DNA from: a virus
Taxonomy: Duplodnaviria; Heunggongvirae; Uroviricota; Caudoviricetes
DNA: 37,562 bases
Strand: one strand, 5' to 3'
Virus record (IMG/VR): IMGVR_UViG_2534681673_000007
Span: 1-37,562 of that record
In this document: positions 1-37,562 of the stretch, piece after piece
How positions within the stretch are numbered: the first letter of the stretch is position 1
Layout of the letters: each line of letters starts with the position of its first letter
Translations under genes and position numbers: made by a program
Notes under the pieces: generated by a model
Told to the model about the DNA's origin: nothing
The model's database searches: none
The model's input: only the letters and a program-made list of their open reading frames with translations

Positions 1-774
<774 letters not shown>

Positions 775-1322
775 GTATTCAATTGATAAGATTAAACCGC
801 AGCACGTTATTGCATACAACGTGTCTGCGTTTTCAACTCCGCCGCCCCCCAATCATGATTGGACAGCACTTGCAAAAAAAAGAAATTAGTATTCTCAGCA
901 GGACACCGGTCAGATAGTGCGGCAGATCAATGTCTGGTGAATATTGATGACCGCTGCCCGCTGATTCTATTGCCGAAACTGTGCGGGAAAAGATGTGGCA
1001 AGATATTGTTGGTAAAAAATTCTCAGTGACTTTATGCCAGCAAATCAGTTTGCCTGGCATCCAGTATCGTGTGCGGTGGATAATGTCAAAAAACATGGGG
1101 AGTCGATTAAACAGGTATAATCGTTAAAAACCTTCAAACTCCAGGCAAAACCCTATTTCATAGAACATGTACTTTCATCTGGTATACATGAACGAATTAT
1201 GACTGCGTTAGTAAAATTACCCTGGTTAAATTACAGGCAGAGATATATGTTCCAGTCCAGTGCTTTTTCGTTTACAATATTTATCTTTCATTATCACTTG
1301 ACTTTATTAAAAGAGGTTCGTT

Positions 1323-2390
1323 GTGACGAATGTTTTTGGGAAGAGAATATATACCCTGGATGTTCTGAGAGGATTTGCCGCACTTTCCGTTGTGTTATGG
1401 CATTGGCAACATTTTTTTATGAAAAAGAATGCTGCATCTGACATAATCATAAACCGCCAACCTTTTTATGAATTTTTTTCCGTCTTTTATCATTACGGTT
1501 TATATGCTGTCGAATTGTTTTTTATGATTTCTGGATTCATATTTTTTTATCTATACGCTGACAATATACACAGCAATAAAACCTCAGCAAAAACTTTTAT
1601 AGTTAACCGTGTCAGTAGATTATATCCACTTTATATATTTACATTTGCTGTCGTGGCAATATTGCAAATTATTTTCTTTAAAAGTCATAATTATTTTTTT
1701 GTTTATCCTATGAATGACATTTACCATGCCATTCTGAATTTATTGATGATTCAATCATGGGGATTTGAGCGAGGTTGGTCCTTCAACGCCCCGACATGGT
1801 CCGTGTCGATTGAAGTACTTATGTACATGATATTTTTTATATTATGCAAGTTCACATCAAAAACAACATTCATATCAATTTTAATAGTTGCATTATCGTA
1901 CTACTTTTTCAAAATTAACAATCCCATAATGATCGGCGCATTCTCTTTCTTTATTGGTGGTCTGACCTATAAAATTACGATTGCGGCCATAAAAAATATT
2001 AGCGCAAAGTTATTTTTTATTTTTGCTTGTGTTTTTCTATTGATCTCATGGGGAGTTATCTTTACCCTGCAAGTAGCAGATATATTCTCAATTATCTTAT
2101 TCGGATTTACCTCCATAATTTTTTTCCTTGTATCAATTAGCGCAATACGAAACGATTTTGGGAAAAAAATTGAATGGTTGGGTGATATCAGTTATTCATC
2201 TTATCTTTTACATTTTCCTTTGCAAATCATTGTTGTTTATTTAGCTGACAAGATTGGCTATGGACGCGATCTTTTTTACAGCCCCAAGGTATTCATTTTA
2301 TTCATGCTTACATTAATGGCAATTAGCTATATGTCATATATATTCATTGAAAAACCATCGCAACAATTCATCCGAGATAAATTTCATTAA
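1323..2390 (+). CDS. Acyltransferase-3 family integral membrane protein (putative O-antigen/LPS O-acetyltransferase, lysogenic-conversion type)
   Basis: ORF 1323..2390 with GTG start preceded by AAGAGG. About 10 hydrophobic segments. N-terminal LDVLRGFAALSVVLWH motif typical of OafA/Oac-like acyltransferases. Visibly AT-rich compared with the phage core. Confidence 0.75.
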   Translation: MTNVFGKRIYTLDVLRGFAALSVVLWHWQHFFMKKNAASDIIINRQPFYEFFSVFYHYGLYAVELFFMISGFIFFYLYADNIHSNKTSAKTFIVNRVSRLYPLYIFTFAVVAILQIIFFKSHNYFFVYPMNDIYHAILNLLMIQSWGFERGWSFNAPTWSVSIEVLMYMIFFILCKFTSKTTFISILIVALSYYFFKINNPIMIGAFSFFIGGLTYKITIAAIKNISAKLFFIFACVFLLISWGVIFTLQVADIFSIILFGFTSIIFFLVSISAIRNDFGKKIEWLGDISYSSYLLHFPLQIIVVYLADKIGYGRDLFYSPKVFILFMLTLMAISYMSYIFIEKPSQQFIRDKFH

Positions 2391-2408
2391 GTAAAGTCAC
2401 TTTGCAAT

Positions 2409-20596: not shown

Positions 20597-20719
20597 ATGC
20601 GGCACTCCTGGTTAAATTTCATTTTTCGCGGGTATAAAAAACGATGGGGCGGGCAGTCCGGAAGACATCAGGCCGCAGGGATTTGACCCGCCCTCCCCTC
20701 AGGCAGTTGAGAATTATTA

Positions 20720-21916: not shown

Positions 21917-22527
21917 ACCAGCAGCGCCGCCCGCGCCTTGTTGTATCGGACCTTACGATCCTCAATACCGTTCAGACCGCCGTTAATGATGCGCGTAACA
22001 CGGTTAATATCGGCACCGTAGATCATGCAGCCTTTAGAGGTGTAGAACCATGCAGCTGAGCGCGCCGCCTGTAGCTCCTGTTCCAGTTGTTCAGGTGAAG
22101 TCACCAGATCTAACTTCAGCGCCGCACCACAGATGCGATAATTATGGAGGCCAGTGATTTGAATTAATCCTCTACCACGATATTTCCAGCCATCACCGGG
22201 GGCTTTGTTACCCAGTCGGTTGCTATACACCAGATTGGCAATAGCATCCTGACGAGCTGCATGTCCGGATGTTCTGCCAAGGGCATCAGCCTGCTGCTGT
22301 GTGATCCTCTTTCCGAACGTCGCCACCAGCGCAGATGGTGTGTAGTTAAAATTTTCAACTACGGCGCTAAACCCCATCGACTCATGGCCTACCTGAGCGA
22401 TAAACATTGCCTGATCCGCGGGTACTGTAATGCCGAATTCCTTCATCGCCGCATCAATGTGCGGAAACCAGCGCGCAGCCAGCCCGGCACTAATACCAGC
22501 CGCCTTTTGAAATAATTGTTGGTTCAT
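21913..22527 (-). CDS. Endolysin, glycoside hydrolase family 19 (chitinase-like lysozyme)
   Basis: 204-aa ORF with GH19-type motifs (FIAQVGHES, GRGLIQITG). Between holin genes and spanins. Confidence 0.85.
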   Translation of the reverse strand: MNQQLFQKAAGISAGLAARWFPHIDAAMKEFGITVPADQAMFIAQVGHESMGFSAVVENFNYTPSALVATFGKRITQQQADALGRTSGHAARQDAIANLVYSNRLGNKAPGDGWKYRGRGLIQITGLHNYRICGAALKLDLVTSPEQLEQELQAARSAAWFYTSKGCMIYGADINRVTRIINGGLNGIEDRKVRYNKARAALLV

Positions 22528-22808
22528 TAGTGCCTCAGATGATCAACCAAACGTGCAACGTTGCCTCTGACGGCCACCAGCACGGAAAGAAAAATAGTAT
22601 TCGCCACGATAATGGGCCATGAGGAGTGAGGATAAATCCCACAGAGATAGGCCAACGGAACAGCACTGTATGTAACAGTAATCAGCCAGGCTAAACGTGA
22701 AACCCAAGGACGATGCCGCGAATCACCACGACGATAAAACATCAGAGTAATAACAACACAAGCACATAACAGCGCATTAATAGTTGCTGTCGGGTCATTT
22801 AGCTCCAC
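22527..22808 (-). CDS. Small membrane protein of lysis cassette (holin or antiholin-like)
   Basis: 93 aa, 2-3 hydrophobic helices. Between the holin and the endolysin, with overlapping start/stop. Confidence 0.5.
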   Translation of the reverse strand: MELNDPTATINALLCACVVITLMFYRRGDSRHRPWVSRLAWLITVTYSAVPLAYLCGIYPHSSWPIIVANTIFLSVLVAVRGNVARLVDHLRH

Positions 22809-23181
22809 CTGAACCTCCCCGGCGCGTTATGAGCGCCACCAGCGAGCCGATATCCTGATTATTCAGGAACGTCAGGATTTTAACGGCTAAAGCAGAGACG
22901 ATTACGGCACCAATAGCATCCAGAGGTTTATCACTGTATCCGGTCAAGTTTGCCAGCTTGGAGCCAACCAACCCAGAGCAAAGGATCCCAGCAATATATG
23001 ACACGATAAAATATGCCAGTCGACGCGATGCACTCAGATCTGCTGCTGTTGCTATATAGAATACAGCCCCTGCAAATGCGCCAAATACAACGCCGTAATC
23101 AGTTCCGGTCAGCAGTCCATAAATACTAGCGCCCGTTAGGGCTCCACCAGCTAACCCTGTGCCGGAAATCGGATCGGACAT
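22795..23181 (-). CDS. Holin-family membrane protein
   Basis: Start MSDPISGTGLAGGALTG at 23181 with GAGGTG RBS. Gly/Ala-rich TM segments. First gene of the lysis cassette. Confidence 0.6.
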   Translation of the reverse strand: MSDPISGTGLAGGALTGASIYGLLTGTDYGVVFGAFAGAVFYIATAADLSASRRLAYFIVSYIAGILCSGLVGSKLANLTGYSDKPLDAIGAVIVSALAVKILTFLNNQDIGSLVALITRRGGSGGAK

Positions 23182-23289
23182 TAGCCACCTCTTATTGCAG
23201 TGAGTCCTCTCAGAAATAGAAATGAGAGGAATAAAAAAGGCCACCATTTGGCAGCCATAGAATTGATGTAATTATAACTAATTCATTAA

Positions 23290-24096
23290 CTATTTCTTAA
23301 TGATGCTATTTAACATTTCTAATGCAAAAAGTAACATGGAGCTAATAAAATATAATATAACCGCACTGGCAATCGCTCCAATTATAGCCTGGACACTCCA
23401 GTGAAAGTAATTTTTACCATTAATAACAAACTTAACACTAGGAAACAAAAAGTCGATAAGCTTAATTATTAATGGAATAGCAAAGCTCCATAAGTTCGAA
23501 AACAAAATAAAGATACAAATAAATGATAAAGCAAATGCACCATCGATTGATAGTTTTGGCGCCAGTTTTGAGGCTGTCCATAAGCTAAGCAAAAAGCCAA
23601 CTGTCACACCTGAAATCTGGATACTTAACATAGTCCAAGCTGTTCTAAAAAATCTAAATTTATTTTTGCACTTGTTAAGTAAATCCTGAATCGTAATCCA
23701 TAACGAGTCAACCCACTCATTATCTTCCGATGCTACAATCATTGTGCTGCTATTTGAATTCCTCTCATCAATTCGTAGCTCCATCCAAGATCCATTCATC
23801 CTGTTAGACTGTCGACTTTGATAAGTTTCAATAGTAAAAATTATTTGATCAATCCTAGTGGCCTGTCTAAAGTATTTCACAAGCTCACCGATAGAATCAA
23901 CTTTATATCCCTTACCATCGAACAAAATAAAAAAAATACATTGAGCACAAACTTCCCTACTTTCCTTTTGAGCTTGCTCATTCATTTTAACGCAGCGTTC
24001 GACAATTGCCGTGCTTAAGCTAATCAAGCTATCTTCATTTATAGAAACACCTGAAATATTCTTGCTTCTGTAAAAATATGACACTTTCGATTCCAC
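23290..24096 (-). CDS. Unknown cargo protein: soluble N-terminal domain (about 160 aa) fused to C-terminal multi-pass TM domain
   Basis: 268-aa ORF in a markedly AT-rich segment. Hydrophobic helices near the C-terminus (GVTVGFLLSLW, AFALSFICIFILF, AIIGAIASAVILYFISSMLLFAL). Start codon uncertain (GTG 24096 or downstream). Confidence 0.6.
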   Translation of the reverse strand: MESKVSYFYRSKNISGVSINEDSLISLSTAIVERCVKMNEQAQKESREVCAQCIFFILFDGKGYKVDSIGELVKYFRQATRIDQIIFTIETYQSRQSNRMNGSWMELRIDERNSNSSTMIVASEDNEWVDSLWITIQDLLNKCKNKFRFFRTAWTMLSIQISGVTVGFLLSLWTASKLAPKLSIDGAFALSFICIFILFSNLWSFAIPLIIKLIDFLFPSVKFVINGKNYFHWSVQAIIGAIASAVILYFISSMLLFALEMLNSIIKK

Positions 24097-24293
24097 TCCG
24101 CACCAGTCTCGATTTAGCGCAGGTTAACATAACCACTTCATTGGTAGAAGAAAAGAACTCTTCTTGTCAGAAAGCTACTGTGATATCCCTAAACCTGCAG
24201 ATGATACAGAACAAAATTTAAGCATCAATTGTAGGCGATTTTAAATTCACTTTACAGTTTAGGCTGCCAATTGGCAGCCGATTGAAGCAGAAA

Positions 24294-24563
24294 TCAATGA
24301 GTGCTCATCGATGAATTTTTTTCAGCGCCAATCTCACTCAAAAAAGCAAAACCTTTTGACGTTATATCATTAGCAATCAATCCACCTTCGGCAGATTTGC
24401 TTCGTATAACATCGATAAAACCTATATCAGCAAGATCTGAAATAGCAAAATTAACCTCTTTTGCTGAGAGATGAGGTAATGATGCAGCCTGAATTCTAGA
24501 ATCCTTTGGCTGCAATTCATTCACTCGACGTAGTATTTCAAGATGGATAGAGGTCAGTTTCAT
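24294..24563 (-). CDS. Unknown small cargo protein (89 aa), possibly DNA-binding/regulatory
   Basis: ATG at 24563 with AGGAG 6 nt upstream. AT-rich. Directly downstream of the Q-distal terminator and upstream of the membrane protein. Confidence 0.6.
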   Translation of the reverse strand: MKLTSIHLEILRRVNELQPKDSRIQAASLPHLSAKEVNFAISDLADIGFIDVIRSKSAEGGLIANDITSKGFAFLSEIGAEKNSSMSTH

Positions 24564-24646
24564 AATGTTCTCCTGTTTTTAATGTTGTTTTACAGAAAAC
24601 ATTATAACACATTGATTTTGATGTAGATTGAATAGAAAAAAACCAT

Positions 24647-24669
24647 AAAAAAACCTCGCAATAGCGAGG
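24647..24669 (-). terminator. Rho-independent terminator (CCUCGC-UAUU-GCGAGG plus U7 tract) downstream of Q; candidate tR'
   Basis: Stem 24654-24659/24664-24669; on the minus strand it is followed by TTTTTTTATGGTTTTTTT. Confidence 0.6.
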
Positions 24670-24777
24670 TCGTAAAAATTGTTCAACGATAGATACACAA
24701 GCCCCATCGTTGAGAAAATCTTATCCATATTTTTTGAGAAACACAAGTATTATGTCGTTATCTTCGGCGAAAATCGC

Positions 24778-25530
24778 TTATCTCGTCACCCTTCTCAATT
24801 GTGCTTCAGCGTAAGCTTCCTCCTGCCAGCACTTTGTAACCAGTTTATCAATGACATCTGCATATCCTTTGTACCACTGATAATCCGTCAGGTCTGGTAC
24901 CAGCTTCTGGACATGAAGCCGCGCCAGTGTGGTTGGTAAACGGCTAAACCGGTTTCCATTGCAACGCCCACAAATCTTATAAACAGGCGTGCCATGAAGC
25001 CGGGTTCTTTTTTCATCCAGGACAATACCTTTACCCTTACACCCTCTGCACGCTGTGCTGACTTCTCCCTTACCATGACAATGCTGACATAGTTCCTTCA
25101 CCCACTCTTCCTTGATAACAGACTCCCCGCTTCTGGAGTGTTTCACCACTTCGCGCAATACATTATGAAATCCAGTACCAGCACAATGCTCACAGCGAGC
25201 CTTACTTGCCGCAGACCTGGAATAATCAGCAAAGGCAAAATTCACAAGGTAAGGAATGATCTGTAGCCGGGTTTCTTCACTCAATTTGTTCAATGTCGGG
25301 TTATCCAGTGCCATCGCGTAATTGAGCAGACCTTCAATCGCAAACAGAGGATCCTGAACACCAACTTTTGCCAGGAATAAGGCAAACCCAAGCGGTGCTT
25401 TCGACTGCACCATCCCCTGCGCAGCCATCACATCTGTAATTGTTAAACCACCCGAGCCTGTCGCCGGTGCGTCATCACTCAATTTTGGAGATTTTGGGGA
25501 GTAATATTTTGGTAAGGCTTCAAGGTTCAT
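24778..25530 (-). CDS. Late-gene antitermination protein Q (Qin/phage 82-type)
   Basis: 250-aa ORF with Cys-rich zinc-binding region (CEHCAGTG...CQHCHGKG...CRGCKGKG...CGRCNGN). Position upstream of the lysis genes. Confidence 0.8.
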   Translation of the reverse strand: MNLEALPKYYSPKSPKLSDDAPATGSGGLTITDVMAAQGMVQSKAPLGFALFLAKVGVQDPLFAIEGLLNYAMALDNPTLNKLSEETRLQIIPYLVNFAFADYSRSAASKARCEHCAGTGFHNVLREVVKHSRSGESVIKEEWVKELCQHCHGKGEVSTACRGCKGKGIVLDEKRTRLHGTPVYKICGRCNGNRFSRLPTTLARLHVQKLVPDLTDYQWYKGYADVIDKLVTKCWQEEAYAEAQLRRVTR

Positions 25531-25544
25531 GCTCGTTCTCCCAC

Positions 25545-26540
25545 TTACGCCAGTACGCCTATTGCCAGCGCACGATCGATAAAACGAAATATCAGTTCCA
25601 GCTGGGAGCCATACTTCTCTTCAAATGCCACGGTATCCGCATGCAGCTCGTCGTGATGCTTTCTGCACAAAGGCAACACAAAGAGGTCATGCGCTTTTGT
25701 TCCCATTCCACCCTGACCGTGACCTATCAGGTGGTGGGGATCATCAGCGGGCTTTCCACAACATGCACACGGCTGTGTCTTAACCCAGCGCGTGTACTTT
25801 TCATTAACCCAGCGGCGACGTTTTGGGCGTAACATAAAAGACTCCGGCGACTCCGGATCCACTTTCAGCGCCAGCACCTTTTTCGCCTTATCCTGGATGA
25901 TGCTGGTGGCAGGAACCGAAGGCACAAGGTCACTTTCCCGGGTGACAGACGGCACAACAGGCTTCGGTAATCTCAGTGCCTTACGGGCTGCACTTTCCGG
26001 TAAGGCATCCGCCAGGTCATTACGAATCAGCCACCAGCACAGTTCCGGCATTGTCACAACGTGACTGTCATCAAAACCGAGATCCCGACGCACAACAGAC
26101 AACACCCAGCGGGCACAGTTATCCGTTGCCATTGATTCCAGCCGTTCCGTGAACTGATCGCGCAGCTGGTTATCGCAGTGCCAGCACAGACGGATTGCGC
26201 CCGGAGCGTGTCGCATTGTGGTCATGTTCTCGCTGTGCCAGTCGGAATGAGGCCACTGGCAGCCATTTTCACGAAGTAACCAGCTTTCAAGACATTCCAC
26301 GCCACCAGCACGACGGATCACTGCCTCATTGCGGAACACTGCCCGAACGGCAGGATCATCCGCCAGCGGTTGTGATGCCGCCGGAACGGCACCACTGGCG
26401 AAAGATGAATAACGTTCCGGCTCAGGCTCCAGCAGGACACGCCCCTGCATAAACAAGGGCATCAGCTCTGAACCAGGTCTGAACAATACGATCCCCATAC
26501 GCGGGGCAATTTCAGGGGTCAGTAGTGCTCTCACGGTCAC
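25545..26540 (-). CDS. DUF968-domain protein (YdfU-like)
   Basis: 331 aa. C-terminal CACCGKPADDPHHLIGHG...KAHD...HH motif block. Adjacent to Q, as in Qin-type prophages. Confidence 0.65.
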   Translation of the reverse strand: MTVRALLTPEIAPRMGIVLFRPGSELMPLFMQGRVLLEPEPERYSSFASGAVPAASQPLADDPAVRAVFRNEAVIRRAGGVECLESWLLRENGCQWPHSDWHSENMTTMRHAPGAIRLCWHCDNQLRDQFTERLESMATDNCARWVLSVVRRDLGFDDSHVVTMPELCWWLIRNDLADALPESAARKALRLPKPVVPSVTRESDLVPSVPATSIIQDKAKKVLALKVDPESPESFMLRPKRRRWVNEKYTRWVKTQPCACCGKPADDPHHLIGHGQGGMGTKAHDLFVLPLCRKHHDELHADTVAFEEKYGSQLELIFRFIDRALAIGVLA

Positions 26541-26541
26541 C

Positions 26542-27339
26542 TCAATGAACGGTATCGAGCAGCTTTAACAGCTCAGGGAATCGGGATTCGAAGAAATGCG
26601 GCTGCGTCTCGCGCGGATTTGCGGGACTGGTAATGTTCTTGCCGAACATGCAGCCTTTCGCCGTTAGCGACCAGAATTTTTTGATGTTGTTAATCGCGGT
26701 ACGGCTGTATCGTTCGCGCTGTTCGACGATCCCCAGTTTCACCATCTGGTGATATGCCTGATTAGCTGTCAGGCGGATACCATACTGCTTCAGCAGTGCA
26801 CTCAGTGACAGCGTGGGGCGGCTTGAGCCATCAGGCGCGTCAGCAGGAGCATCAATGGCATAGCGCGGTGCCAGATTCGGTAAGCCAACAGCCTCCTGGA
26901 GTTTCTGACAGGCACCAAGCACTGAAGAGTTAGACAGGTTTAACTCCCTGCGCATAAAGTCCAGCAGAATCACACCAGCCTGCATCTTGTCAGCAGCCTG
27001 CCCGGATAATTTTTCCGGTGCGCTGGTTACCATATCGAAAGTACGGATCACCTTCAGATGGAATGACGGGCTGATCCACATTGCATAGGCATACACCAGT
27101 TCTTTGCAGACATACGTCCCCTGGTTATTTCCGCCACGAATAACGTTAACTGGCTCTATATTGACCGAGTTGCAAATCTGCAACTCGCTTATTAAACGTT
27201 CAGTTTGCTCATTGCGGAGCCAGAATGCAGGCTTATGCTTATCCAGAGAACCGGCAGCCCTGTGCAGATCGTTCAGGCTGTAACGACCATAAGCATCACG
27301 ACGAACTTCAATACCATCAATGACCATCAGATTATTCAT
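26542..27339 (-). CDS. KilA-N domain protein
   Basis: N-terminal MVIDGIEVRRDAYGRYSLNDLHRAAG...KPAFWLRNEQTERLI matches the KilA-N DNA-binding domain pattern. Confidence 0.7.
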   Translation of the reverse strand: MNNLMVIDGIEVRRDAYGRYSLNDLHRAAGSLDKHKPAFWLRNEQTERLISELQICNSVNIEPVNVIRGGNNQGTYVCKELVYAYAMWISPSFHLKVIRTFDMVTSAPEKLSGQAADKMQAGVILLDFMRRELNLSNSSVLGACQKLQEAVGLPNLAPRYAIDAPADAPDGSSRPTLSLSALLKQYGIRLTANQAYHQMVKLGIVEQRERYSRTAINNIKKFWSLTAKGCMFGKNITSPANPRETQPHFFESRFPELLKLLDTVH

Positions 27340-27358
27340 ACTTCGTTTCTCCTCTTAA

Positions 27359-27497
27359 TCAGGCGGCTGCACCCGCCGTTTTCTCGTACTTACTGATAGT
27401 GATCTCGACCTTCCCTTCCGGGATAACCGGTCCCCACTCCACCAGCATTCTTTTCACCTGACTGTCGTCTTCCCACACACCCGCGTGGGTCAGGGCG
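27359..27497 (-). pseudogene. rusA: rusA Holliday-junction resolvase, C-terminal fragment displaced by IS insertion
   Basis: Hand translation continuing from the N-terminal fragment across the IS: ALTHAGVWEDDSQVKRMLVEWGPVIPEGKVEITISKYEKTAGAAA, then stop. Confidence 0.7.
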
Positions 27498-27505
27498 TGT
27501 AGTGG

Positions 27506-29005
<1,500 letters not shown>

Positions 29006-29009
<4 letters not shown>

Positions 29010-29332
29010 ACTTTCAGGCCCCTCTCATGTAACCAGTGGGCTGCACGCAGCCTGGCGTTTTCCTCACCGGCAAGCAGTGAGCGGATAATCCCGACCGCCT
29101 CGCTGTCGTCGTCCTTCACCGCGGTATGAAGCGTTATCCCCCGGGCCACGCCACGCTTTATCGTGATGACGCCTTTTTTCTCCAGTGCGCGAAGATGCTC
29201 CACCGCTGCATTCACCGAACGGTATCCCAGCATGGTTGCCACCTCCTGATTGGTTGGCGGGAAGCCACGTTCTTTCTGATAAGAAATCAGCATATCCAGC
29301 ACCTGCTGCTGGCATTGAGTTAACGTCGTCAT
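29006..29332 (-). CDS. LexA N-terminal DNA-binding-domain homologue lacking the S24 peptidase domain
   Basis: Start MTTLTQCQQQVLD at 29332. Close match over about 70 aa to the LexA winged-helix domain (GFPPTNQEVATMLGYRSVNAAVEHLRALEKKGVI). ATGA overlap with rusA. Confidence 0.65.
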
Positions 29333-29826
29333 TAAGCCCCCACGTAATTCCCTGACAGATACCACTCTTCACCCGATGCAGCGCGCTTGCTGCTTTTCCG
29401 TAAGCACCGCTCACGACGCGCCAGAAAATTGTTTCGTTCTGGCTGGGAGTGGCTTTCACGGAATGCCGCCATCCACACGGTTGCAGCACGACGAAATAAG
29501 CCCCTGGACTCCAGTTCTTCCGCCTGGCGGGCCAGGCACAAAATCACCCGCGGGTCGTTAGTGCCGACATAGAAATTGCGCACAGGTCTGGTTTCACGAA
29601 CTGGTTGTGGTTCCGGTTCCTGCGCTCTCTCAGTCAGGCGCGGGAAATGTCTGCGTGTATCTCCTTCACAACGGTGAGCCACACGCCCACTCTGACGTAA
29701 CTTGCTTGCTGACTGCAGAACGCGCTGCCGTGAGTAACCAGCAAAAGCATCCGCAATGTCTCCGGAAGTACACCCCGGATGGGCTTCAATGAATTTCTGA
29801 ACGTCATTTAACAGACTCATGATCAC
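29332..29826 (-). CDS. Hypothetical protein of replication module (164 aa)
   Basis: ORF translationally coupled at both ends to the O-like gene upstream and the LexA-like gene downstream. No recognised motif. Confidence 0.45.
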   Translation of the reverse strand: MIMSLLNDVQKFIEAHPGCTSGDIADAFAGYSRQRVLQSASKLRQSGRVAHRCEGDTRRHFPRLTERAQEPEPQPVRETRPVRNFYVGTNDPRVILCLARQAEELESRGLFRRAATVWMAAFRESHSQPERNNFLARRERCLRKSSKRAASGEEWYLSGNYVGA

Positions 29827-30764
29827 CCCCTGAATCCTGCCGGGATCTGGCTGTAGTCCACGTTGTCGTAACTGGCTTTGAAGTACGGGTCTTCACGTTT
29901 TTCTGTGTGCGTGCTGACGGACGGCGATAAGCGCAGGGAAAGCTCATCCCATTTTTCCCGCAACTTCGACGGGCTGAGCACGTTACGGCACCAGAACGGA
30001 TCGCGGCTGACGCGGCTGTACATCTCGCAGATTTGTTTGTGAGTACGACCATCCTGCACACACATCAGGCGAATTTCGTTTGCCCAGGCTGTCCAGTTAG
30101 GTTCTTTGGGACGAACCACCTCGCCGTCACATTCGGCGGCCTGCTCGTACAGGGCGATGATTTTTTTCCAGAGCCACTGTGCGCAGGTCAAATCATCCTG
30201 CGTTCCCCACTGGCGCTTTTTAGGGCTGAATACAACCGCATCAGGATGGCGAGTTAAAAAATCCTGTTCAGCCGTCTGCGTGTCCGGTTGCGAAGCGTCC
30301 GGACGAGAAGGTTTTTTATCTGACGGATCATGTTTTGATTTTACTGACGGATCCCCGCCAGATTCTGACGGGTGAAAACCCGCTTTTTTGCCAGATTTCG
30401 ACGCATCAAATTTTGACGGGTCAGATTTTGATGCGTCAGATTTTGACGGGTCAGAATCTGACAGTTGAGAAAATGCCGCTGCCTGAAGCTTCGCAACGTT
30501 AAGCTGATAAACATTCGACGCATTGCGGTTACCCTGGCGACGCGCCTTACGCGTTAACCAGCCTTCTGCTTCCAGCCGTGCGATAGCCGTTCTGACGGTA
30601 CTCATCCCCGCGCCAATCTGACGGGCAATGGTTTCAATTGATGGCCAGCACACACCTTCGTCATTACTGAAATCAGCCAGGCGGGCCATAATTGCCACGC
30701 TGGATAACTTCATGCCTGATGCAGCGCAACCATCCCATACATAGCCGGTTAATTTAGTACTCAT
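29823..30764 (-). CDS. Replication initiation protein (O-like, N-terminal HTH, internal iteron-encoded repeat region)
   Basis: 313 aa. N-terminal winged-helix-like region. Central repeats SDPSKSDASKSDPSKFDASKS encoded by DNA iterons. Confidence 0.65.
   Translation of the reverse strand: MSTKLTGYVWDGCAASGMKLSSVAIMARLADFSNDEGVCWPSIETIARQIGAGMSTVRTAIARLEAEGWLTRKARRQGNRNASNVYQLNVAKLQAAAFSQLSDSDPSKSDASKSDPSKFDASKSGKKAGFHPSESGGDPSVKSKHDPSDKKPSRPDASQPDTQTAEQDFLTRHPDAVVFSPKKRQWGTQDDLTCAQWLWKKIIALYEQAAECDGEVVRPKEPNWTAWANEIRLMCVQDGRTHKQICEMYSRVSRDPFWCRNVLSPSKLREKWDELSLRLSPSVSTHTEKREDPYFKASYDNVDYSQIPAGFRG
30319..30455. repeat. Iteron array (about 7 copies of a roughly 15-bp unit, consensus near ATTTTGACGGGTCAG); candidate replication origin inside the initiator gene
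   Basis: Direct repeats read from the sequence: tctgacggatca, ttactgacggatc, ttctgacgggtga, tttcgacgcatca, ttttgacgggtcag, ttttgatgcgtcag, ttttgacgggtcag. Confidence 0.5.
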
Positions 30765-30773
30765 GACCGACCT

Positions 30774-31112
30774 CTATTTCCCTGAATTTACGACGAAACT
30801 GTTCGAGCGGACTGAAGCATTCATGCTCATAACCTTCGCGGAGGTAGATAACCCGTTGTGTTTCCGGCTCCCAACGAATGACTCTGACGGGCACTCCGTA
30901 GTGATCTTTGAACCAGCGGTTAACTTGTCGCAAAGGACTGTCTCCTTCTGCCGGTTGAAATCACCCACAGCCCACTCTGCAAAGCTGTGGGTTACAATTT
31001 CCCTGTCACCTGGTACATTCACTGCATAGCAATATTCCACCTTCGCTTTTCCACCCGGTACAGGAAGCGCAATCAGTTGCGAGCGACGGTAGTGTGTTGT
31101 TAAACTGTTCAT
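30774..31112 (-). CDS. Hypothetical protein (112 aa), translationally coupled in early-right operon
   Basis: ATGA overlap with the upstream gene's stop and ends 9 nt before the O-like start. Composition unremarkable. Confidence 0.4.
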
Positions 31113-31678
31113 GCGTTAGTTTCTCCACAACCAGAAGCAATCGACGCCACGACGCCCGGAGCTGCACACTCGCGGGCGTCATTACTTTCTGAAATGCAAA
31201 AAATTTTGTAGACAAGTGCTGCATGCTCCTGCAGCTTCGAAATTGAGAGATACAGCTCGTCGTTAATTGCTGTCTTCTCATGCGGTTCCACTACACCGTC
31301 TTCGATTGCTGAACGAATCTGTTTTGAATAACTGCCGATCTGTTCAATGACTTCCAGCAGACGCTGGTTAATATCGGCGTTGTCCACATCCTCGACGTCA
31401 GGAAGAGACACAAAGACGCCATTTGCAGACTGCGCCACAGCATCAGCAATGAAGTGAGTGCCACCAGCACGCTGTAAAACCATTGCCCATCCCAGCGGGA
31501 AAATCTGATCGCCATCTGCACGAAGGCGGTTGAATAAAGCGTTTTCTGTTACATCGAGCCAGTCAGCCGCTTCAGCGTAACCACCCGGCAACGCCGCGAT
31601 AGTTTTTCTGACAGCTTTCACGTACCACTCAGGCTGTTTTTCTATTTTCCAGTGATGCTTACCCACGATTAGCCTCAT
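31109..31678 (-). CDS. Hypothetical regulatory protein in the cII position (possibly YdaT-like)
   Basis: 189-aa ORF immediately downstream of the cro-like gene. Family assignment is tentative, from position and my recollection of YdaT-type proteins. Confidence 0.4.
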
Positions 31679-31709
31679 CGTTCTGTGGTTAAAAATTGAA
31701 AGTGTTCTG

Positions 31710-31910
31710 CTAATCTTTCGGATAGATATCCGGTCTTAAGTCAGATTTCGTAATTGCACCTGACGTGCATTGCTCAAGTTTTTTAGCCAGCACAAAACTG
31801 GCTTTTTTATAGCCATTGAAAACCAGCCGTAAGTAGCCAGGTGTTGAGCCAACTTTTCCGGCCAACTCGCCCTGCTGTTCTTTGGTTAAAGAGTCCCAAT
31901 ACGCTTTCAT
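31710..31910 (-). CDS. Cro-like HTH transcriptional regulator
   Basis: 66-aa product MKAYWDSLTKEQQGELAGKVGSTPGYLRLVFNGYKKASF... with an HTH. GGAGG 10 nt upstream. Divergent from the CI-like gene. The ORF track's longer 31710..32249 frame is not supported. Confidence 0.6.
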   Translation of the reverse strand: MKAYWDSLTKEQQGELAGKVGSTPGYLRLVFNGYKKASFVLAKKLEQCTSGAITKSDLRPDIYPKD

Positions 31911-31916
31911 ACAATA

Positions 31917-31933
31917 TGTACCTCCGGTGTACA
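31917..31933. promoter_or_regulatory. Operator-like site TGTACC-TCCGG-TGTACA, overlapping the cro RBS/promoter region
   Basis: Inverted repeat read from the sequence in the 90-bp cI/cro intergenic region. Confidence 0.45.
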
Positions 31934-31966
31934 TATTACATGATTGAAATGAACCTTCAAGATACT

Positions 31967-31983
31967 TGTACCTTAACGGTACA
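31967..31983. promoter_or_regulatory. Operator-like site TGTACC-TTAAC-GGTACA (perfect inverted repeat)
   Basis: Second copy of the same 17-bp architecture, 50 bp from the first, in the cI/cro intergenic region. Confidence 0.45.
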
Positions 31984-32000
31984 AGGGTTTTAATTTCGTT

Positions 32001-32674
32001 ATGAAAACAATCCATGACATCCGGCGGTCTAACGCCAGAAAACTGAGAGATGGTGTTGGCGGGAATTCTTCCTTTGCCACTATGATTGATCGCGAGCCAA
32101 CCCAGACCAGCAGGTTTATGGGAGATGGTGCTACTAAAAATATCGGTGACAGCATGGCACGACACATCGAAAAATGTTTCGACCTGCCTGTCGGATGGCT
32201 CGATCAAGAACACCAGACAACGAACATCACAAAAAACCTGATGTTTCAATCACTAATAAACAAATCACATTAGTCCCTGTCATATCATGGGTACAGGCCG
32301 GAGCATGGAAAGAAGTTGGATATTCTGAGGTTGATTTGAGCACAGCAGAAACGTATCCCTGCCCTGTACCCTGTGGGGAAATGACTTATATCTTGCGGGT
32401 GATAGGTGATTCAATGATTGATGAGTACCGCCCGGGAGACATGATTTTTGTCGATCCTGAAGTACCTGCCTGCCACGGTGACGACGTTATTGCATTGATG
32501 CACGATACAGGTGAAACCACCTTCAAAAGGTTGATAGAAGATGGGACACAGCGTTATCTCAAAGCGTTAAACCCAAACTGGCCTGAGCCTTACATTAAGA
32601 TCAACGGTAATTGCTCTATAATTGGTACAGTGATTTTCTCAGGAAAACCAAGAAGATACAAAATCAAAGCCTAA
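32001..32674 (+). pseudogene. CI-like repressor (N-terminal HTH plus C-terminal LexA-like S24 peptidase domain) with reading frame split at an A6 run (32231-32236)
   Basis: HTH in frame of ORF 32001..32273. S24 domain (PVISWVQAGAW...GDSM...FKRL) in frame of ORF 32174..32674. One extra A would fuse them as ...NITKKPDVSITNKQITLVPVISW... Confidence 0.6.
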
Positions 32675-32686
32675 TCAATGTTTATG

Positions 32687-32710
32687 AACCTGCTTCGGCA
32701 GGTTTTTTAT
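32687..32710 (+). terminator. Rho-independent terminator after the repressor gene (AACCUGC-UUCG-GCAGGUU plus UUUUUUAU)
   Basis: 7-bp stem with UUCG tetraloop and U-tract, 13 nt after the repressor stop. Confidence 0.65.
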
Positions 32711-32712
32711 AC

Positions 32713-32740
32713 TTGACAATGTACCTTTGAGATACATAAT
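32713..32740 (+). promoter_or_regulatory. pL-like early promoter (TTGACA, 16-bp spacer, CATAAT) overlapped by operator-like site TGTACC-TTTGA-GATACA (32720-32736)
   Basis: Consensus -35 and near-consensus -10 read directly. Third copy of the TGTACC-N5-GGTACA motif sits in the spacer. Confidence 0.5.
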
Positions 32741-32850
32741 GTACCCAAGCGAAACAACGAACAGGCAGGACGCCCACGAAGTAGCCGCCTGGGGCATATG
32801 AAGTCCAGGATGATTCGTTAGCAACAAAAAAGCGCCCTACAGGACGCTTA

Positions 32851-32862
32851 GCTCTTTAACAA
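32851..32862 (+). promoter_or_regulatory. boxA-like element GCTCTTTAACAA in the early-left leader
   Basis: 11 to 12 of 12 match to the rrn/lambdoid boxA consensus as I recall it; about 50 nt upstream of the first early-left gene. Confidence 0.3.
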
Positions 32863-32907
32863 TCTGGTCCCCTTCAACAAGTAACTGATAACTTGAGGAG
32901 GTGTGAA

Positions 32908-33114
32908 ATGCACAAAACAGAACCCAAAATCGTCGCGCCTGGCTACACAGATGAGGAAATTTATGAGTGGATGACAAAGAAGCTGGCAGCTATAAACCAG
33001 CTTCGTGAATTGCGGTCTTATCGACAGGAAACAATAGGCTCCTTAAAAAAACTGGATCAGGAAATCACGGTTTTATCACAGGATGCTACTTTAGATATTG
33101 TGCAGACAAATTAG
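32908..33114 (+). CDS. Hypothetical small protein (68 aa), first gene of early-left operon
   Basis: ATG at 32908 with GAGGAGG 6 nt upstream. Predicted helical/coiled-coil (KKLAAINQLRELRSYRQETIGSLKKLDQEI). Confidence 0.5.
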   Translation: MHKTEPKIVAPGYTDEEIYEWMTKKLAAINQLRELRSYRQETIGSLKKLDQEITVLSQDATLDIVQTN

Positions 33115-33520
33115 GATCCCATTCATTTTCGTCAAAATCATCAAAGTGATGAATTTGTGATCTCCAGTCTCGATAATCTAAAAATTTCTGGGCGGTTACG
33201 CTTATTTTATCAAGTGTGAGTTCATCCTGAATTGAAAGAAGAAGTTCATCAAATTTCATCTCATTAATCTGTTTTGGCATCCAGTGATGCTTCATCAGAA
33301 TAAGGTGAACCAGAGCCTTTTTCCCATTCAACTGATTATAGGGAGTGCCGAATTTCTTCCGGTGCTCATGTAAGACAAGGTCTAGAAGAGTAAGTAATGT
33401 TGCCCTTGATTCCACTTTGCTTATTTCGACTGATGACACTACCCCACTGATTTCAATGCCCCGATACTTTCCAACATTTTCACAGTGGGATTTGTACAGC
33501 GTATAGATATTACCGGACAT
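33086..33520 (-). CDS. Unknown protein (144 aa) encoded antisense to the early-left operon; lower GC
   Basis: ATG at 33520 with AAGGA 7 nt upstream. 3' end converges on and overlaps the end of the 68-aa gene. No recognised motif. Confidence 0.55.
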   Translation of the reverse strand: MSGNIYTLYKSHCENVGKYRGIEISGVVSSVEISKVESRATLLTLLDLVLHEHRKKFGTPYNQLNGKKALVHLILMKHHWMPKQINEMKFDELLLSIQDELTLDKISVTAQKFLDYRDWRSQIHHFDDFDENEWDPNLSAQYLK

Positions 33521-34064
33521 TTCTTTTCCTTTTGCGTTGTTGGGGATAACCAGATTAACCGAATCCTTGTTGTTGGGGAATAACCAGGTCCACCTCGCCT
33601 GATGTGGCTAAAAGCAGGCACATAACAGCTAAGTATTTTCAACCAGAGAGAATCCTTAGCGTTGTGGTGAATGCGGCTCAGCGCACGCGGGTTAAGGTTG
33701 AGGCTGACAGTCGACCTTCTGTGGATACCCACCCGTCTGGTGTGCAACCTTCGCCAGGCACCGGGAGGCACCCGGCACCACAACTTTATGCTGTGTGTAG
33801 TCCTGGCGATACCAGTTTGTACCCTTGCTTCCGGCTGGTACCGTCCTTTTTACAAAACAGAGAAGAGCATCACCGGACGATGGGCTCATAACCCAATCCA
33901 TCCGGCAGTGACTACCGTAGGTGTTCTTCTCTGTTTTGTGGAGAAACTAACCGCCCCTGCGGGGGCATTTATGGAAACGTAATTGACTCAATAATCGCCG
34001 GATGGCGAGGGATTCTTGCAACCAAAATTCAACGCGGTGCAGCGCATATAACGTGGAGAACGAA

Positions 34065-34601
34065 ATGTCATTTATTAAAACTTTTTCCGGGAAGCATTTT
34101 TATTATGACCGGATAAATAAAGACAACATCGATATTAACGATATCGCGGTTTCCCTTTCAAATATCTGTCGCTTTGCAGGACATCTTTCACACTTCTACA
34201 GCGTCGCCCAACATGCGGTTCTTTGCAGCCAGCTGGTACCGCAGGAATTTGCTTTTGAAGCGTTAATGCATGATGCAACAGAAGCGTATTGCCAGGACAT
34301 CCCCGCTCCACTGAAACGCCTTCTTCCTGACTATAAACGGATGGAAGAAAAAATAGACGCCGTAATCCGTGAGAAATACGGGTTACCTCCTGTTATGAGC
34401 ACGCCAGTGAAATATGCCGATCTCATTATGCTGGCAACCGAACGCCGCGATCTCGGGCTTGATGATGGCTCTTTCTGGCCTGTACTGGAAGGCATCCCGG
34501 CAACAGAGATGTTCAACGTGATTCCAATGCCACCGGGCCATGCCTACGGGATGTTTATGGAACGCTTTCACGAGTTATCGGAGTTACGCAAATGCGCATG
34601 A
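34065..34601 (+). CDS. HD-domain phosphohydrolase (YfdR-like)
   Basis: Start MSFIKTFSGKHFYYD at 34065 with GGAG upstream. Metal-binding residues in FAGHLSHFYSVAQHAV and LMHDATEAY (H...HD pattern). Confidence 0.7.
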   Translation: MSFIKTFSGKHFYYDRINKDNIDINDIAVSLSNICRFAGHLSHFYSVAQHAVLCSQLVPQEFAFEALMHDATEAYCQDIPAPLKRLLPDYKRMEEKIDAVIREKYGLPPVMSTPVKYADLIMLATERRDLGLDDGSFWPVLEGIPATEMFNVIPMPPGHAYGMFMERFHELSELRKCA

Positions 34602-34683
34602 ATGTTTTCGAAATGGAAGGGTTTCTTCGCGGGAGATGTGTACCACGAGACCTGAAAGTGAATGAAACGGATGCTGAATACCT

Positions 34684-34953
34684 GTGCGTAAATTAGATGC
34701 GCTTGAAGCTAAATGTGCAGCACTGGAAAACAAAGTAATACCAGTGTCAGCTGAACTGCCACCAGCAAATGAAAGTGTTCTGTTATTTGATGCTAACGGA
34801 GAAGGCTGGCTGATTGGCTGGCGTTCTCTCTGGTACACATGGGGGCAAAAAGAAACCGGAGAATGGCAGTGGACATTTCAGGTCGGGGACCTTGAAAACG
34901 TCAATATCACTCACTGGGCAGTAATGCCGAAAGCACCGGAGAATAAGAAATGA
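34684..34953 (+). CDS. Hypothetical protein (Trp-rich C-terminus, possibly DUF551-like)
   Basis: ORF 34684..34953 with a non-ATG start per the ORF track. WLIGWRSLWYTWGQKETGEWQW motif. Confidence 0.4.
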   Translation: MRKLDALEAKCAALENKVIPVSAELPPANESVLLFDANGEGWLIGWRSLWYTWGQKETGEWQWTFQVGDLENVNITHWAVMPKAPENKK

Positions 34954-35165
34954 ACGTGATAAAAACTCATACAGGAATTGTTATTACCCGAAACGGTCCG
35001 CAGGTAAAAAAACTGCACCAGACAAAGCGGATGTGGGTCGTCGGAAAAAACGAGTTTTACCACAAAGAAACCGGACGCCGCCACTTTGCAGAAAATACGC
35101 GCCGCCGACTGCTCCTGGACAGCATCAGGCCAATTAAACAGGTAGCAACCATAGAACAAAATTAA
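34950..35165 (+). CDS. Hypothetical small basic protein (71 aa)
   Basis: ORF 34950..35165 overlapping the preceding stop (ATGA); upstream of xis. Confidence 0.4.
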   Translation: MNVIKTHTGIVITRNGPQVKKLHQTKRMWVVGKNEFYHKETGRRHFAENTRRRLLLDSIRPIKQVATIEQN

Positions 35166-35226
35166 TTATCAGGACTGAAATTTGATATTACTGCCCGTGT
35201 GCAGCGGGTTAAGTGGAGAAACAGCC

Positions 35227-35436
35227 ATGGCAAAACTAATGAAAGCGAGCCAATGGGGACGCCGTGAATTCTCTAATGGCTCAATTCCTGACAACCGAAC
35301 GATAAAACGCTGGGTCGAGAACGGTCTGCTCATGGGGCGTATCGTGGACGGTTCTGTTTTTGTCTGCGAAACAGAAAAATGGGGAGTCGACTCAATGGTT
35401 AGTCAAGCTGTTCGCAAGTTAATAAATGAGGGGTGA
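35227..35436 (+). CDS. xis: Excisionase-like protein
   Basis: 69-aa product, ATG at 35227 with GGAG upstream. Overlaps the integrase start. Motif TIKRWVENGLLMGRIVDGSVFV resembles excisionase-type wHTH. Confidence 0.6.
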   Translation: MAKLMKASQWGRREFSNGSIPDNRTIKRWVENGLLMGRIVDGSVFVCETEKWGVDSMVSQAVRKLINEG

Positions 35437-36617
35437 CCATGGCGGCAAGGCCACGTAAAAAAGAATACAGACATCTTCCTGATTATCTGATTTTTGATAA
35501 AGATCGAGGTGTTTATAAATTCACACTTATTACCGGAAAGAAGAAAAATATAGGTAAGGATAGGGCAATAGCCATTGCAATCGCCAGAGAGTACAACCTG
35601 AGGATGCGACCAGAATTATCTCCATCAGTAGATAATCTTATTAGAGAATCTGGCGGTGTTATCGGAGAAGCAAAACCATTTGCTGAACATGTTGATCACA
35701 TAATGGCCCGAATTATCGAAGACGAACGTCCTTCCCAGAGCACCTTAGATGACTGGAAAAATGACGCTCTACGCGTAAAAGCGTTTTTCGTAAATGTTCC
35801 GGCATGCGATATCGAACTTGAACACGTTAATACCTACATCAACAAATATCATGCCAGCGCATCCGCAAATGTGCAGAACAGAAAGGTCAGCTTTCTTAAA
35901 AAGTTGTTCTCTTATGCGGTCGATGAATCACTAATGCTGGATAACCCGGCCATCAGAAAAAAAATGCGTAGGACTGATGAGAAGAAAAGACGGCGCCTGT
36001 CACTCGAGCATTTTATAGCTATCAGGCAGGCCGCTGCACCATGGTTAAGAACAGCAATGGACCTAGCATTGCAGACTACACATGCACGACTCGAAGTATC
36101 GCGAATCCGTTACTCAATTCGCGAACCTAAAGACGGTATATGTGGATGTGTCTGGTTCGAACAACCACAAAATGGCATATATGGGACGCTTTACATCCAC
36201 AGGCAAAAAGTGCAACAAAAAGAGGCGTCACACGTTGCAATACCAATTGGTGAAGAGTTGAAACGGATAATTGACGATAGCCGAGATAATGTGGCCAGTC
36301 CGTTTGTCGTTCACAGGATCCCAGAACGCCAAGTTAAACGCAGCAAAGAGGTTTCACATCCTACTCAAGTTGCACCGGACTATTTGAGTAGGTCGTTTTC
36401 AGCTACACGGGACAAACTAGGTTTATGCGACAATCTACCAATGGATGAAAGACCAACCTTTCACGAAATTCGAGCACTAGCAGCGCATCTATTCGATCAG
36501 CAGGGTATCGATCCACAAGGACGAATGGCGCACAGCGATGCGAAGTCAACCAAGATCTACACGCAAAATCATATAGATTGGGTTGTCGTTCCCCATGGAG
36601 AAATTAAAGCCAGCTAA
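35433..36617 (+). CDS. int: Tyrosine integrase (lambda Int family)
   Basis: 394 aa. N-terminal arm-binding region similar to lambda Int (HLPDYL...GKDRAIAIAIA). C-terminal catalytic region with PTFHEIRAL...AHSDAKSTKIYTQ (R/H/R/Y pattern). Confidence 0.9.
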   Translation: MTMAARPRKKEYRHLPDYLIFDKDRGVYKFTLITGKKKNIGKDRAIAIAIAREYNLRMRPELSPSVDNLIRESGGVIGEAKPFAEHVDHIMARIIEDERPSQSTLDDWKNDALRVKAFFVNVPACDIELEHVNTYINKYHASASANVQNRKVSFLKKLFSYAVDESLMLDNPAIRKKMRRTDEKKRRRLSLEHFIAIRQAAAPWLRTAMDLALQTTHARLEVSRIRYSIREPKDGICGCVWFEQPQNGIYGTLYIHRQKVQQKEASHVAIPIGEELKRIIDDSRDNVASPFVVHRIPERQVKRSKEVSHPTQVAPDYLSRSFSATRDKLGLCDNLPMDERPTFHEIRALAAHLFDQQGIDPQGRMAHSDAKSTKIYTQNHIDWVVVPHGEIKAS

Positions 36618-36710
36618 TAATAAATTACTCCCTTTATTGCTTTAGTATAAAGCAGAGCAAACCAAATTGGACGGGTTGCTCTGTGTTGGAAGTTGAGGAA
36701 TGTATTAATT

Positions 36711-37562
36711 TCAAAGTGAGTAATTGGAGAGTTCTTCAATCATTGACCGATAATGTATACCGATACTATCGGCAAATTTTTCGCCCATCCCCTCAACTGA
36801 CGCAATTAGGCAGTCTGTAGCAACCTTCAGGGATATTATGACTAAGCAGATGTCAGCTTCACTGGGTGCACCATGACCGCTAAATTCATCAATCCTGTGG
36901 ATAGCCAGTGGCAATGGATGAGCCAGATTTGATAGTAACTGGTGATGTAGTGCAATGTCGGCTAACCGCGGGCAGCGAGCTTCGAACTCAGCTTTGGTAT
37001 AATACATTTCGGCCCTGTTTTTGAGACTATTCTTTTGTTCTTTAGATAGTGAACTATAGAATTCATGGTTCACTATCTCCTCCTGCTGCTTTGGTATGCC
37101 GGTGAAAAACTCCTCCAGTGATTCTTCAGATTCACCAGCCTTCAGTCTGATATCACGCCATTTAACATTTCTGTCTTTCTGGAAAATTCGAAAACGAAAG
37201 TCAGCCTCCGCTTCCGAGACCGTTTCCGTTCCGTAATAAAAAAGCGCCTGAAAATTTTCCATCACACTTCTGGACACAAGTGCGATAGTGGTTACATCCC
37301 ATACTGTATCATCGGGATTAACTCCGTTTCGCAGTACTGGTAGTAGTTTCTTAAGACTATGCGCAGTCAACACTTGACGAGTGAAAATATTTGCAGCCCG
37401 TATTCCCCTGCCGTCAGTCTTAATTCCGCTTTGATTCAGTGATATGGCCGCGGAAATTTCACAAGCGCGGCAGAAGATCTTATAAAGGCTAATGTAAGAC
37501 CTCTCAACCTCAGTGTGTTCTCGGAAACGAATGTTACTGCCTTTTTTAGTTCTTTTTTTCAT
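36711..37562 (-). CDS. Unknown protein (283 aa) immediately beyond the integrase 3' end
   Basis: Complete ORF whose ATG is the last codon of the window, so its promoter is outside. No recognised catalytic motif. Confidence 0.5.
   Translation of the reverse strand: MKKRTKKGSNIRFREHTEVERSYISLYKIFCRACEISAAISLNQSGIKTDGRGIRAANIFTRQVLTAHSLKKLLPVLRNGVNPDDTVWDVTTIALVSRSVMENFQALFYYGTETVSEAEADFRFRIFQKDRNVKWRDIRLKAGESEESLEEFFTGIPKQQEEIVNHEFYSSLSKEQKNSLKNRAEMYYTKAEFEARCPRLADIALHHQLLSNLAHPLPLAIHRIDEFSGHGAPSEADICLVIISLKVATDCLIASVEGMGEKFADSIGIHYRSMIEELSNYSL

Follow-up and report, generated by a model that had tools for sequence, protein, structure and literature searches.

A split CI-type repressor gene in an SfV-like prophage of Escherichia coli is very probably a homopolymer undercall artefact of a draft assembly

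The DNA analysed here (hereafter the window, a stretch of 37,562 nt) represents a full-length SfV-like prophage with an HK97-type head, a Mu-like contractile tail and a lambdoid early region. As deposited, its prophage repressor gene (ymfK/cI type, LexA/CI S24 family; plus strand, 32001..32674) equals an intact 675-nt gene minus one base and reads as two overlapping open reading frames. ORF1 (plus strand, 32001..32273) encodes 90 aa, namely 78 native N-terminal residues that make up the putative DNA-binding domain, followed by a 12-residue out-of-frame tail. ORF2 (plus strand, 32174..32674), which relative to ORF1 is in frame +2, equivalent to -1, encodes 166 aa that comprise the linker and the Peptidase_S24 autocleavage/dimerisation domain. 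The two repressor domains are thus carried by separate polypeptides in the deposited sequence of the window, whereas in the relatives examined, from finished genomes and phages alike, and in the sister copies of this prophage a single polypeptide holds both.

Both frames traverse ACAAAAAAC at 32229-32237, which contains a run of six A residues (A6; plus strand, 32231..32236) that is A7 in all relatives examined, sister copies of the prophage included. The zero-frame codons at this point are ACA (32229), AAA (32232) and AAC (32235), such that the heptamer A_AAA_AAC (plus strand, 32231..32237), itself an incidental product of the missing A, is phased for tandem -1 slippage. An earlier inspection of this DNA (the sequence-only reading) had described the same layout, and its account holds at this level, both ORFs being present in the ORF list, the sequence being found at 32229-32237 and the computed phase of the heptamer being correct. 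It left three explanations standing: a homopolymer sequencing error, a genuine mutation leaving a repressor with a helix-turn-helix (HTH) domain only, and low-level -1 ribosomal slippage that makes both forms.

Among complete E. coli records 1,327 match the 771-nt repressor region at no less than 95% identity, as do 26 phage records. Aligned with ymfK of E. coli GE3, it shows no substitution and exactly two one-base gaps, A7 to A6 within the gene and T7 to T6 in the U-tract of the repressor terminator. Addition of a single A yields a 224-aa protein identical to YmfK of E. coli K-12 (WP_000848748.1). By these identities the locus is ymfK, which encodes the CI-type repressor of prophage e14 and in SfV/SfIV-like phages goes by the name cI. 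The two-ORF arrangement is not a chance one, since it corresponds to the intact gene less one base with no substitution against either GE3 or K-12 ymfK. Apart from the split, this is an ordinary LexA/CI-type S24 repressor gene that has been described before as YmfK and as SfV cI.

At the domain level, the assignment of an S24 autopeptidase to ORF2 was confirmed by a full-length match to Pfam PF00717 (Peptidase_S24, residues 1-116 of 116, E 1.2e-26), and ORF2 also matches the C-terminal domain of lambda CI (E 1.9e-9), with Lys176 aligned with the lambda FKK motif. In the numbering of the intact protein, obtained by hand count, the linker carries A100-G101 (QAG), S138 lies in GDSM and K176 in FKRL. 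The sequence elements of the Ser/Lys dyad and of the Ala-Gly site of LexA/CI-type S24 repressors are therefore present, and catalysis is predicted. Like lambda CI, LexA and UmuD (MEROPS S24), the protein of the window has the C-terminal S24 domain with the GDSM serine, the FKRL lysine and the linker Ala-Gly; it differs from this family in its N-terminal domain, which lacks any Pfam HTH match. The HTH attributed to ORF1 by the sequence-only reading thus found partial agreement. Neither the N-terminal 78-90 residues nor the repaired full-length protein matched a Pfam HTH family, even at E<=10, and because of this we relied on PDB sequences, where ORF1 gave a weak match over residues 1-73 to the N-terminal domain of SPC32H Rep (5d50, E 6e-4) and a weaker match to that of TP901-1 CI (7nkv, E 0.047). 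These weak, full-length matches to N-terminal domains of phage repressors suggest that the label is a reasonable one.

The repressor gene lies in a canonical immunity region, made up of the repressor, a divergent cro/ymfT gene, operator-like palindromes, ymfL and a ymfM-like ORF. The cro/ymfT gene (minus strand, 31710..31910, 66 aa) is divergent from the repressor and is annotated at the homologous position in GE3, SfV, SfIV and K-12. The operator/promoter region (31907..31985) contains palindromes at 31907-31943 and 31965-31985, in a stretch that the SfV record annotates as a putative operator region. Two toxic early genes under repressor control follow, both belonging to the division-inhibitor region of e14: ymfL (minus strand, 31109-31678) and the ymfM-like ORF (minus strand, 30774-31112, 112 aa), which differs by one residue from the K-12 copy. 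On the other side, a Rho-independent terminator of the repressor gene (plus strand, 32686..32708) was found by terminator scan and is annotated in SfV; its U-tract is T6 in the window and T7 in sister copies.

The two best-known relatives of this gene frame the comparison. YmfK of the K-12 e14 prophage shares with the window the same gene order, with divergent ymfT (cro), ymfL and the ymfM-like ORF, and the same 224-aa protein once the A is restored; the differences are that the deposited A-run of the window is one base shorter, and that the window prophage is a full-length SfV-like element located beside yejO whereas e14 is a remnant. The cI genes of Shigella phages SfV and SfIV have 98.7-99.2% nucleotide identity to the window over the gene, operator region and terminator, and in the SfV record operator and terminator are annotated at positions homologous to those of the window. 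Unlike the window, the SfV and SfIV records have A7, T7 and a single 675-nt ORF.

Other features of the prophage were noted. An IS3-family element (27498-28755, about 1,258 bp) with terminal inverted repeats of the form TGTAGTGG... interrupts rusA, leaving a truncated gene (28740-29009) that encodes an 89-aa fragment. The IS-truncated rusA marks one prophage lineage, with the insertion found in at least 24 public contigs; E. coli VTB97448v carries this IS at a distance of 170 bp, across a shared segment. Elsewhere, a 15-nt insertion relative to GE3 (30406-30420) was observed within an HTH_36 replication-protein gene, in a stretch of TCA(A/G)ATTTTGACG-like repeat units. These units are possibly iteron-like origin repeats that vary in number. 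The left end of the window (1-2400) holds cargo genes beyond the tail-fibre module, with a LEM-3-like GIY-YIG domain gene at about 1-774 and an acyltransferase-family gene at about 1325-2392, the latter reminiscent of the O-antigen-modifying morons of Shigella serotype-converting phages. The tail-fibre and assembly genes next to this cargo are flagged partial in related annotated genomes.

Positions 22174-37562 of the window are 100% identical to AEZK02000026.1, a contig of the E. coli 5.0588 draft assembly (GCA_000215145.2), where ORF2 is deposited as a 'peptidase S24-like protein' (EIH02168.1). The strain also appears to be listed in PMC11540155, with BioSample SAMN05439484. Other copies of the same prophage were located using the 89-residue product of the IS-truncated rusA as a lineage marker. 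This marker has 29 indexed blocks in the public collection, and the contigs read numbered 24. The intact 224-aa repressor is present in all three non-5.0588 contigs among the matches listed (SRR24434806, SRR6952389 and SRR34046538), a count that refers to those matches, with 20 further similar places lying beyond them; these sister contigs are possibly from isolates other than strain 5.0588 itself. In base-by-base alignment with the window, each sister contig carries one private substitution over 11.9-18.8 kb, and substitutions specific to the window number none in 18.8 kb.

What does separate the window from all covering sisters is just four differences, each of them a single-base homopolymer contraction on the plus strand. 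Two are intergenic, A7 to A6 at 20636..20641 (between terS and an HNH gene; A7 in the sisters) and C4 to C3 at 20691..20693 (C4 in the sisters). The third is A7 to A6 at 32231..32236 in the repressor gene, and the fourth T7 to T6 at 32703-32708 in the terminator U-tract, the sisters having A7 and T7, respectively. This pattern, like the sequence identities and the domain content, is a direct observation. Extrapolated, four indels with no substitution in 18.8 kb would mean some 1,000 frameshift-type changes in each genome, a figure that lacks biological credibility; the pattern is the classic signature of homopolymer undercalling. Four contractions unaccompanied by any substitution on one branch are not a credible mutational spectrum, and we therefore attribute them to undercalling.

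Homopolymer errors are also evident elsewhere in the same data. An independent (Logan) assembly of read set SRR066811, which is the same strain, covers 15.4 kb with no substitutions against the deposit and differs from it only at two A8 runs (23929-23936 and 35957-35964), both called A7; the call at 35957 splits the integrase gene. Sister copies have A8 at both 23929 and 35957, in agreement with the deposit, from which it follows that the SRR066811 read set undercalls long homopolymers and that the deposit is right at both sites. The repressor run is called A6 in both the deposited and the Logan assembly, although the two derive from the same reads and are dependent evidence. In the chromosomal flank of the same draft assembly, about 335 nt past the right end of the window, a T6 to T5 change lies in yejO (L009:15724), the run being T6 in both of the finished genomes closest to it. 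The yejO T5 adds a frameshift to a gene that is already a pseudogene in relatives.

The undercalling is sporadic in nature. A blanket loss of homopolymer bases was considered and rejected, as the window retains seventeen 7-mers and four 8-mers. The picture resembles the homopolymer-length errors of flow-based or nanopore sequencing, in that the assembly-specific differences are one-base changes of run length (runs of 3-8 bases, for the most part shortened) with no substitutions, and in that two assemblies of one read set disagree in their calls. The published literature yielded neither a sequencing platform nor accessions for the 5.0588 assembly. Two further runs of variable length were observed in the intergenic stretch between the GIY-YIG and acyltransferase genes, C6 at 845-850 (C7 or C8 in relatives) and A8 at 874-881 (A7 in one relative), at positions outside sister-copy coverage where error and natural variation are not distinguishable.

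Among finished genomes the A6 sequence had no exact match in 1,046 E. coli records, and the 20636/20691 variant was absent from 1,358 finished records. In all 26 phage records the repressor is one annotated or unsplit gene, with A7 in the four of four that were checked. Comparison of the A-run length in related prophages, which had been proposed as a check, gave A7 in every relative whose run was read. The exact T6 terminator sequence occurs in 5 of 1,067 finished records, and this weakened an initial view of A6 and T6 as two independent hallmarks, which was restored by the sister-copy comparison. An apparent T6 in phages Ayreon and cdtI, from 772-nt alignments, proved wrong, both having A7 and T7. 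In a 'complete' record of E. coli DH5alpha (NZ_CP025520.1) the ymfK terminator reads T6, against T7 in MG1655, probably through a homopolymer error that survived in a finished K-12 record; the 5 of 1,067 count may therefore include artefacts.

Public contigs present a different picture from the finished genomes. Exact ORF2 products occur on 36 and 47 public contigs, and we considered whether A6 might be a real inherited or recurrent allele on the strength of the many A6 contigs. This candidate was discarded, as most of the other A6 contigs that were examined have also lost single bases from further runs of 5-7 bases, often with other genes split as a result, and six are pure K-12. These six (L007, L008, L010, L015, L026 and L027) correspond to K-12 e14 with no substitutions against MG1655, and their differences from MG1655 are one-base homopolymer deletions, the ymfK A7 to A6 change always among them. 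One, L010, has six homopolymer deletions in 3.7 kb. In another, L026 (SRR28052514), the ymfK A6 is the sole difference from MG1655 over 7,077 nt, and here it may be a real mutation in a laboratory lineage. The other public A6 contigs are not independent confirmations of A6, and the ymfK A7 run is a recurrent miscall site in public assemblies, K-12 read sets with their established sequence included.

We conclude with high confidence that the repressor split is a homopolymer undercall artefact of the draft assembly. This is the first of the three explanations originally offered, and it is strongly supported by A7 in the sister copies and by four contractions with no substitution. Independent reads with A7 and a single ORF had been named as the observation that would speak against a genuine split, and this is in effect what other read sets of the same prophage give, in the form of the 224-aa gene. 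The split repressor is almost certainly not a real feature, and comparison with other assemblies of the same prophage makes the finding an ordinary one. The residual uncertainty stems from the possible origin of the sister contigs in different isolates and from the sequencing platform of SRR066811.

In our proposed account, the draft assembly would have shortened several homopolymer runs by one base, one of these runs lying inside the repressor gene. The true prophage sequence would have A7 at 32231-32237 and a single intact YmfK/CI-type repressor of 224 residues, consisting of a putative N-terminal DNA-binding domain, a linker with the Ala-Gly site and a C-terminal S24 Ser/Lys autopeptidase/dimerisation domain. 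As knowledge of the family would predict, this repressor would bind operators located between its own gene and cro in the manner of LexA and lambda CI, and would be inactivated in the SOS response, when RecA stimulates it to cleave itself.

The next reading to be weighed is a genuine one-base deletion in strain 5.0588, such that the repressor is a pseudogene encoding the 90-residue N-terminal fragment and the lysogen survives via a second-site defect or trace read-through. We consider it improbable. In its favour, A6 is the consensus in both assemblies of the strain's reads, the K-12 contig that differs from MG1655 by A6 alone offers a possible precedent, and A7 runs are natural hot spots of replication slippage in vivo. 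The IS3-family element in rusA, with the early promoter on one side and the Q antiterminator gene on the other, might be polar on the late genes, and such polarity could blunt their expression and make loss of the repressor less lethal. The sister copies, however, share the IS insertion and yet have an intact repressor. A real deletion also leaves the contractions without substitution to be accounted for, and A6 occurs in none of the 1,046 finished records.

Physiology argues against a real deletion as well. Even in K-12, whose e14 is defective, ymfK is essential according to the Keio collection and two transposon studies (PMC10350078), and the ymfL/ymfM region, intact here, contains the SOS-inducible division inhibitor sfiC, which is associated with filamentation (PMC6206680). 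A true ymfK null should therefore not be maintained. The native part of the fragment, 78 residues long, stops some 22 residues short of the Ala100-Gly101 cleavage site, and the fragment would thus resemble the RecA-cleaved, inactive form of CI/LexA-type repressors and not a super-repressor. Were the deletion real, the strain would be a modestly interesting lysogen that survives loss of an essential prophage repressor.

Low-level -1 slippage, the third explanation offered initially, fared unevenly. The heptamer is correctly phased and its -1 product would be full-length YmfK with the single change K79N, and A_AAA_AAC is the proven frameshift motif of IS1. The published efficiency is low, however: in E. 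coli, where background is about 0.055%, this heptamer unaided by a stimulator gives 0.163% frameshifting, and the value is 0.189% when the IS911 stimulators are added and 0.739% when the IS3 pseudoknot is (PMC4066793, Sharma et al. 2014, supplementary table), these being reporter values in contexts other than that of the window. Were A6 real, about 1 in 600 ribosomes would produce YmfK K79N, as an accident and not as a programmed signal. Strain 5.0588 could truly be A6, its otherwise intact SfV-like prophage restrained by trace YmfK(K79N) from about 0.2% spontaneous -1 slippage on this IS1-type heptamer, a combination that we regard as very improbable. If A6 were true, this would be an accidental 'translationally rescued' repressor allele, and a hair-trigger or leaky lysogen would be expected.

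That -1 frameshifting here is evolved or used, with N-terminal-only and full-length (K79N) forms made from one mRNA in the style of IS1 insA/insAB', strikes us as exceedingly improbable. No downstream stimulator was found in the 93 nt that follow the heptamer, which fold at -12.3 kcal/mol and so less stably than 197 of the 200 shuffled versions (mean -17.6, z +2.03), and the upstream 26 nt (32205-32230) contain no GGAG/AGGA-type, SD-like stimulator. No finished relative and no sister copy has the two-frame layout, and therefore nothing has been selected. As a programmed -1 site, 32231..32237 has the heptamer but neither stimulator nor conservation. The IS1 insA-insB' pair is instructive here: it uses the identical heptamer, in phase and with no known stimulator as in the window, but its two-ORF layout is conserved and required, whereas that of the window belongs to one draft assembly and is absent from the sisters.

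The notion that the HTH-only product is a stable, non-cleavable repressor rendering the prophage SOS-non-inducible has next to no likelihood in our estimation and would be unlikely even were the deletion real: ORF1 does retain the whole DNA-binding domain and some phage repressors naturally lack an S24 domain, but the reading requires the very deletion that the sister copies oppose, a truncated form of this kind is encoded by no relative, the essentiality of ymfK in K-12 speaks against it, and in CI/LexA types the C-terminal domain supplies dimerisation, its separation being the means by which induction inactivates the protein. In lambda CI and LexA, the N-terminal fragment left by RecA-stimulated cleavage is inactive, as dimerisation resides in the C-terminal domain.

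The homopolymer undercall that we favour makes this locus a cautionary case. Accepted as deposited, the split would mislead on prophage inducibility or yield a spurious recoding candidate. Since the ymfK A7 run is miscalled recurrently, 'frameshifted' ymfK-like genes and separate 'peptidase S24-like protein' entries such as EIH02168.1 should be regarded as suspect unless accurate reads support them.
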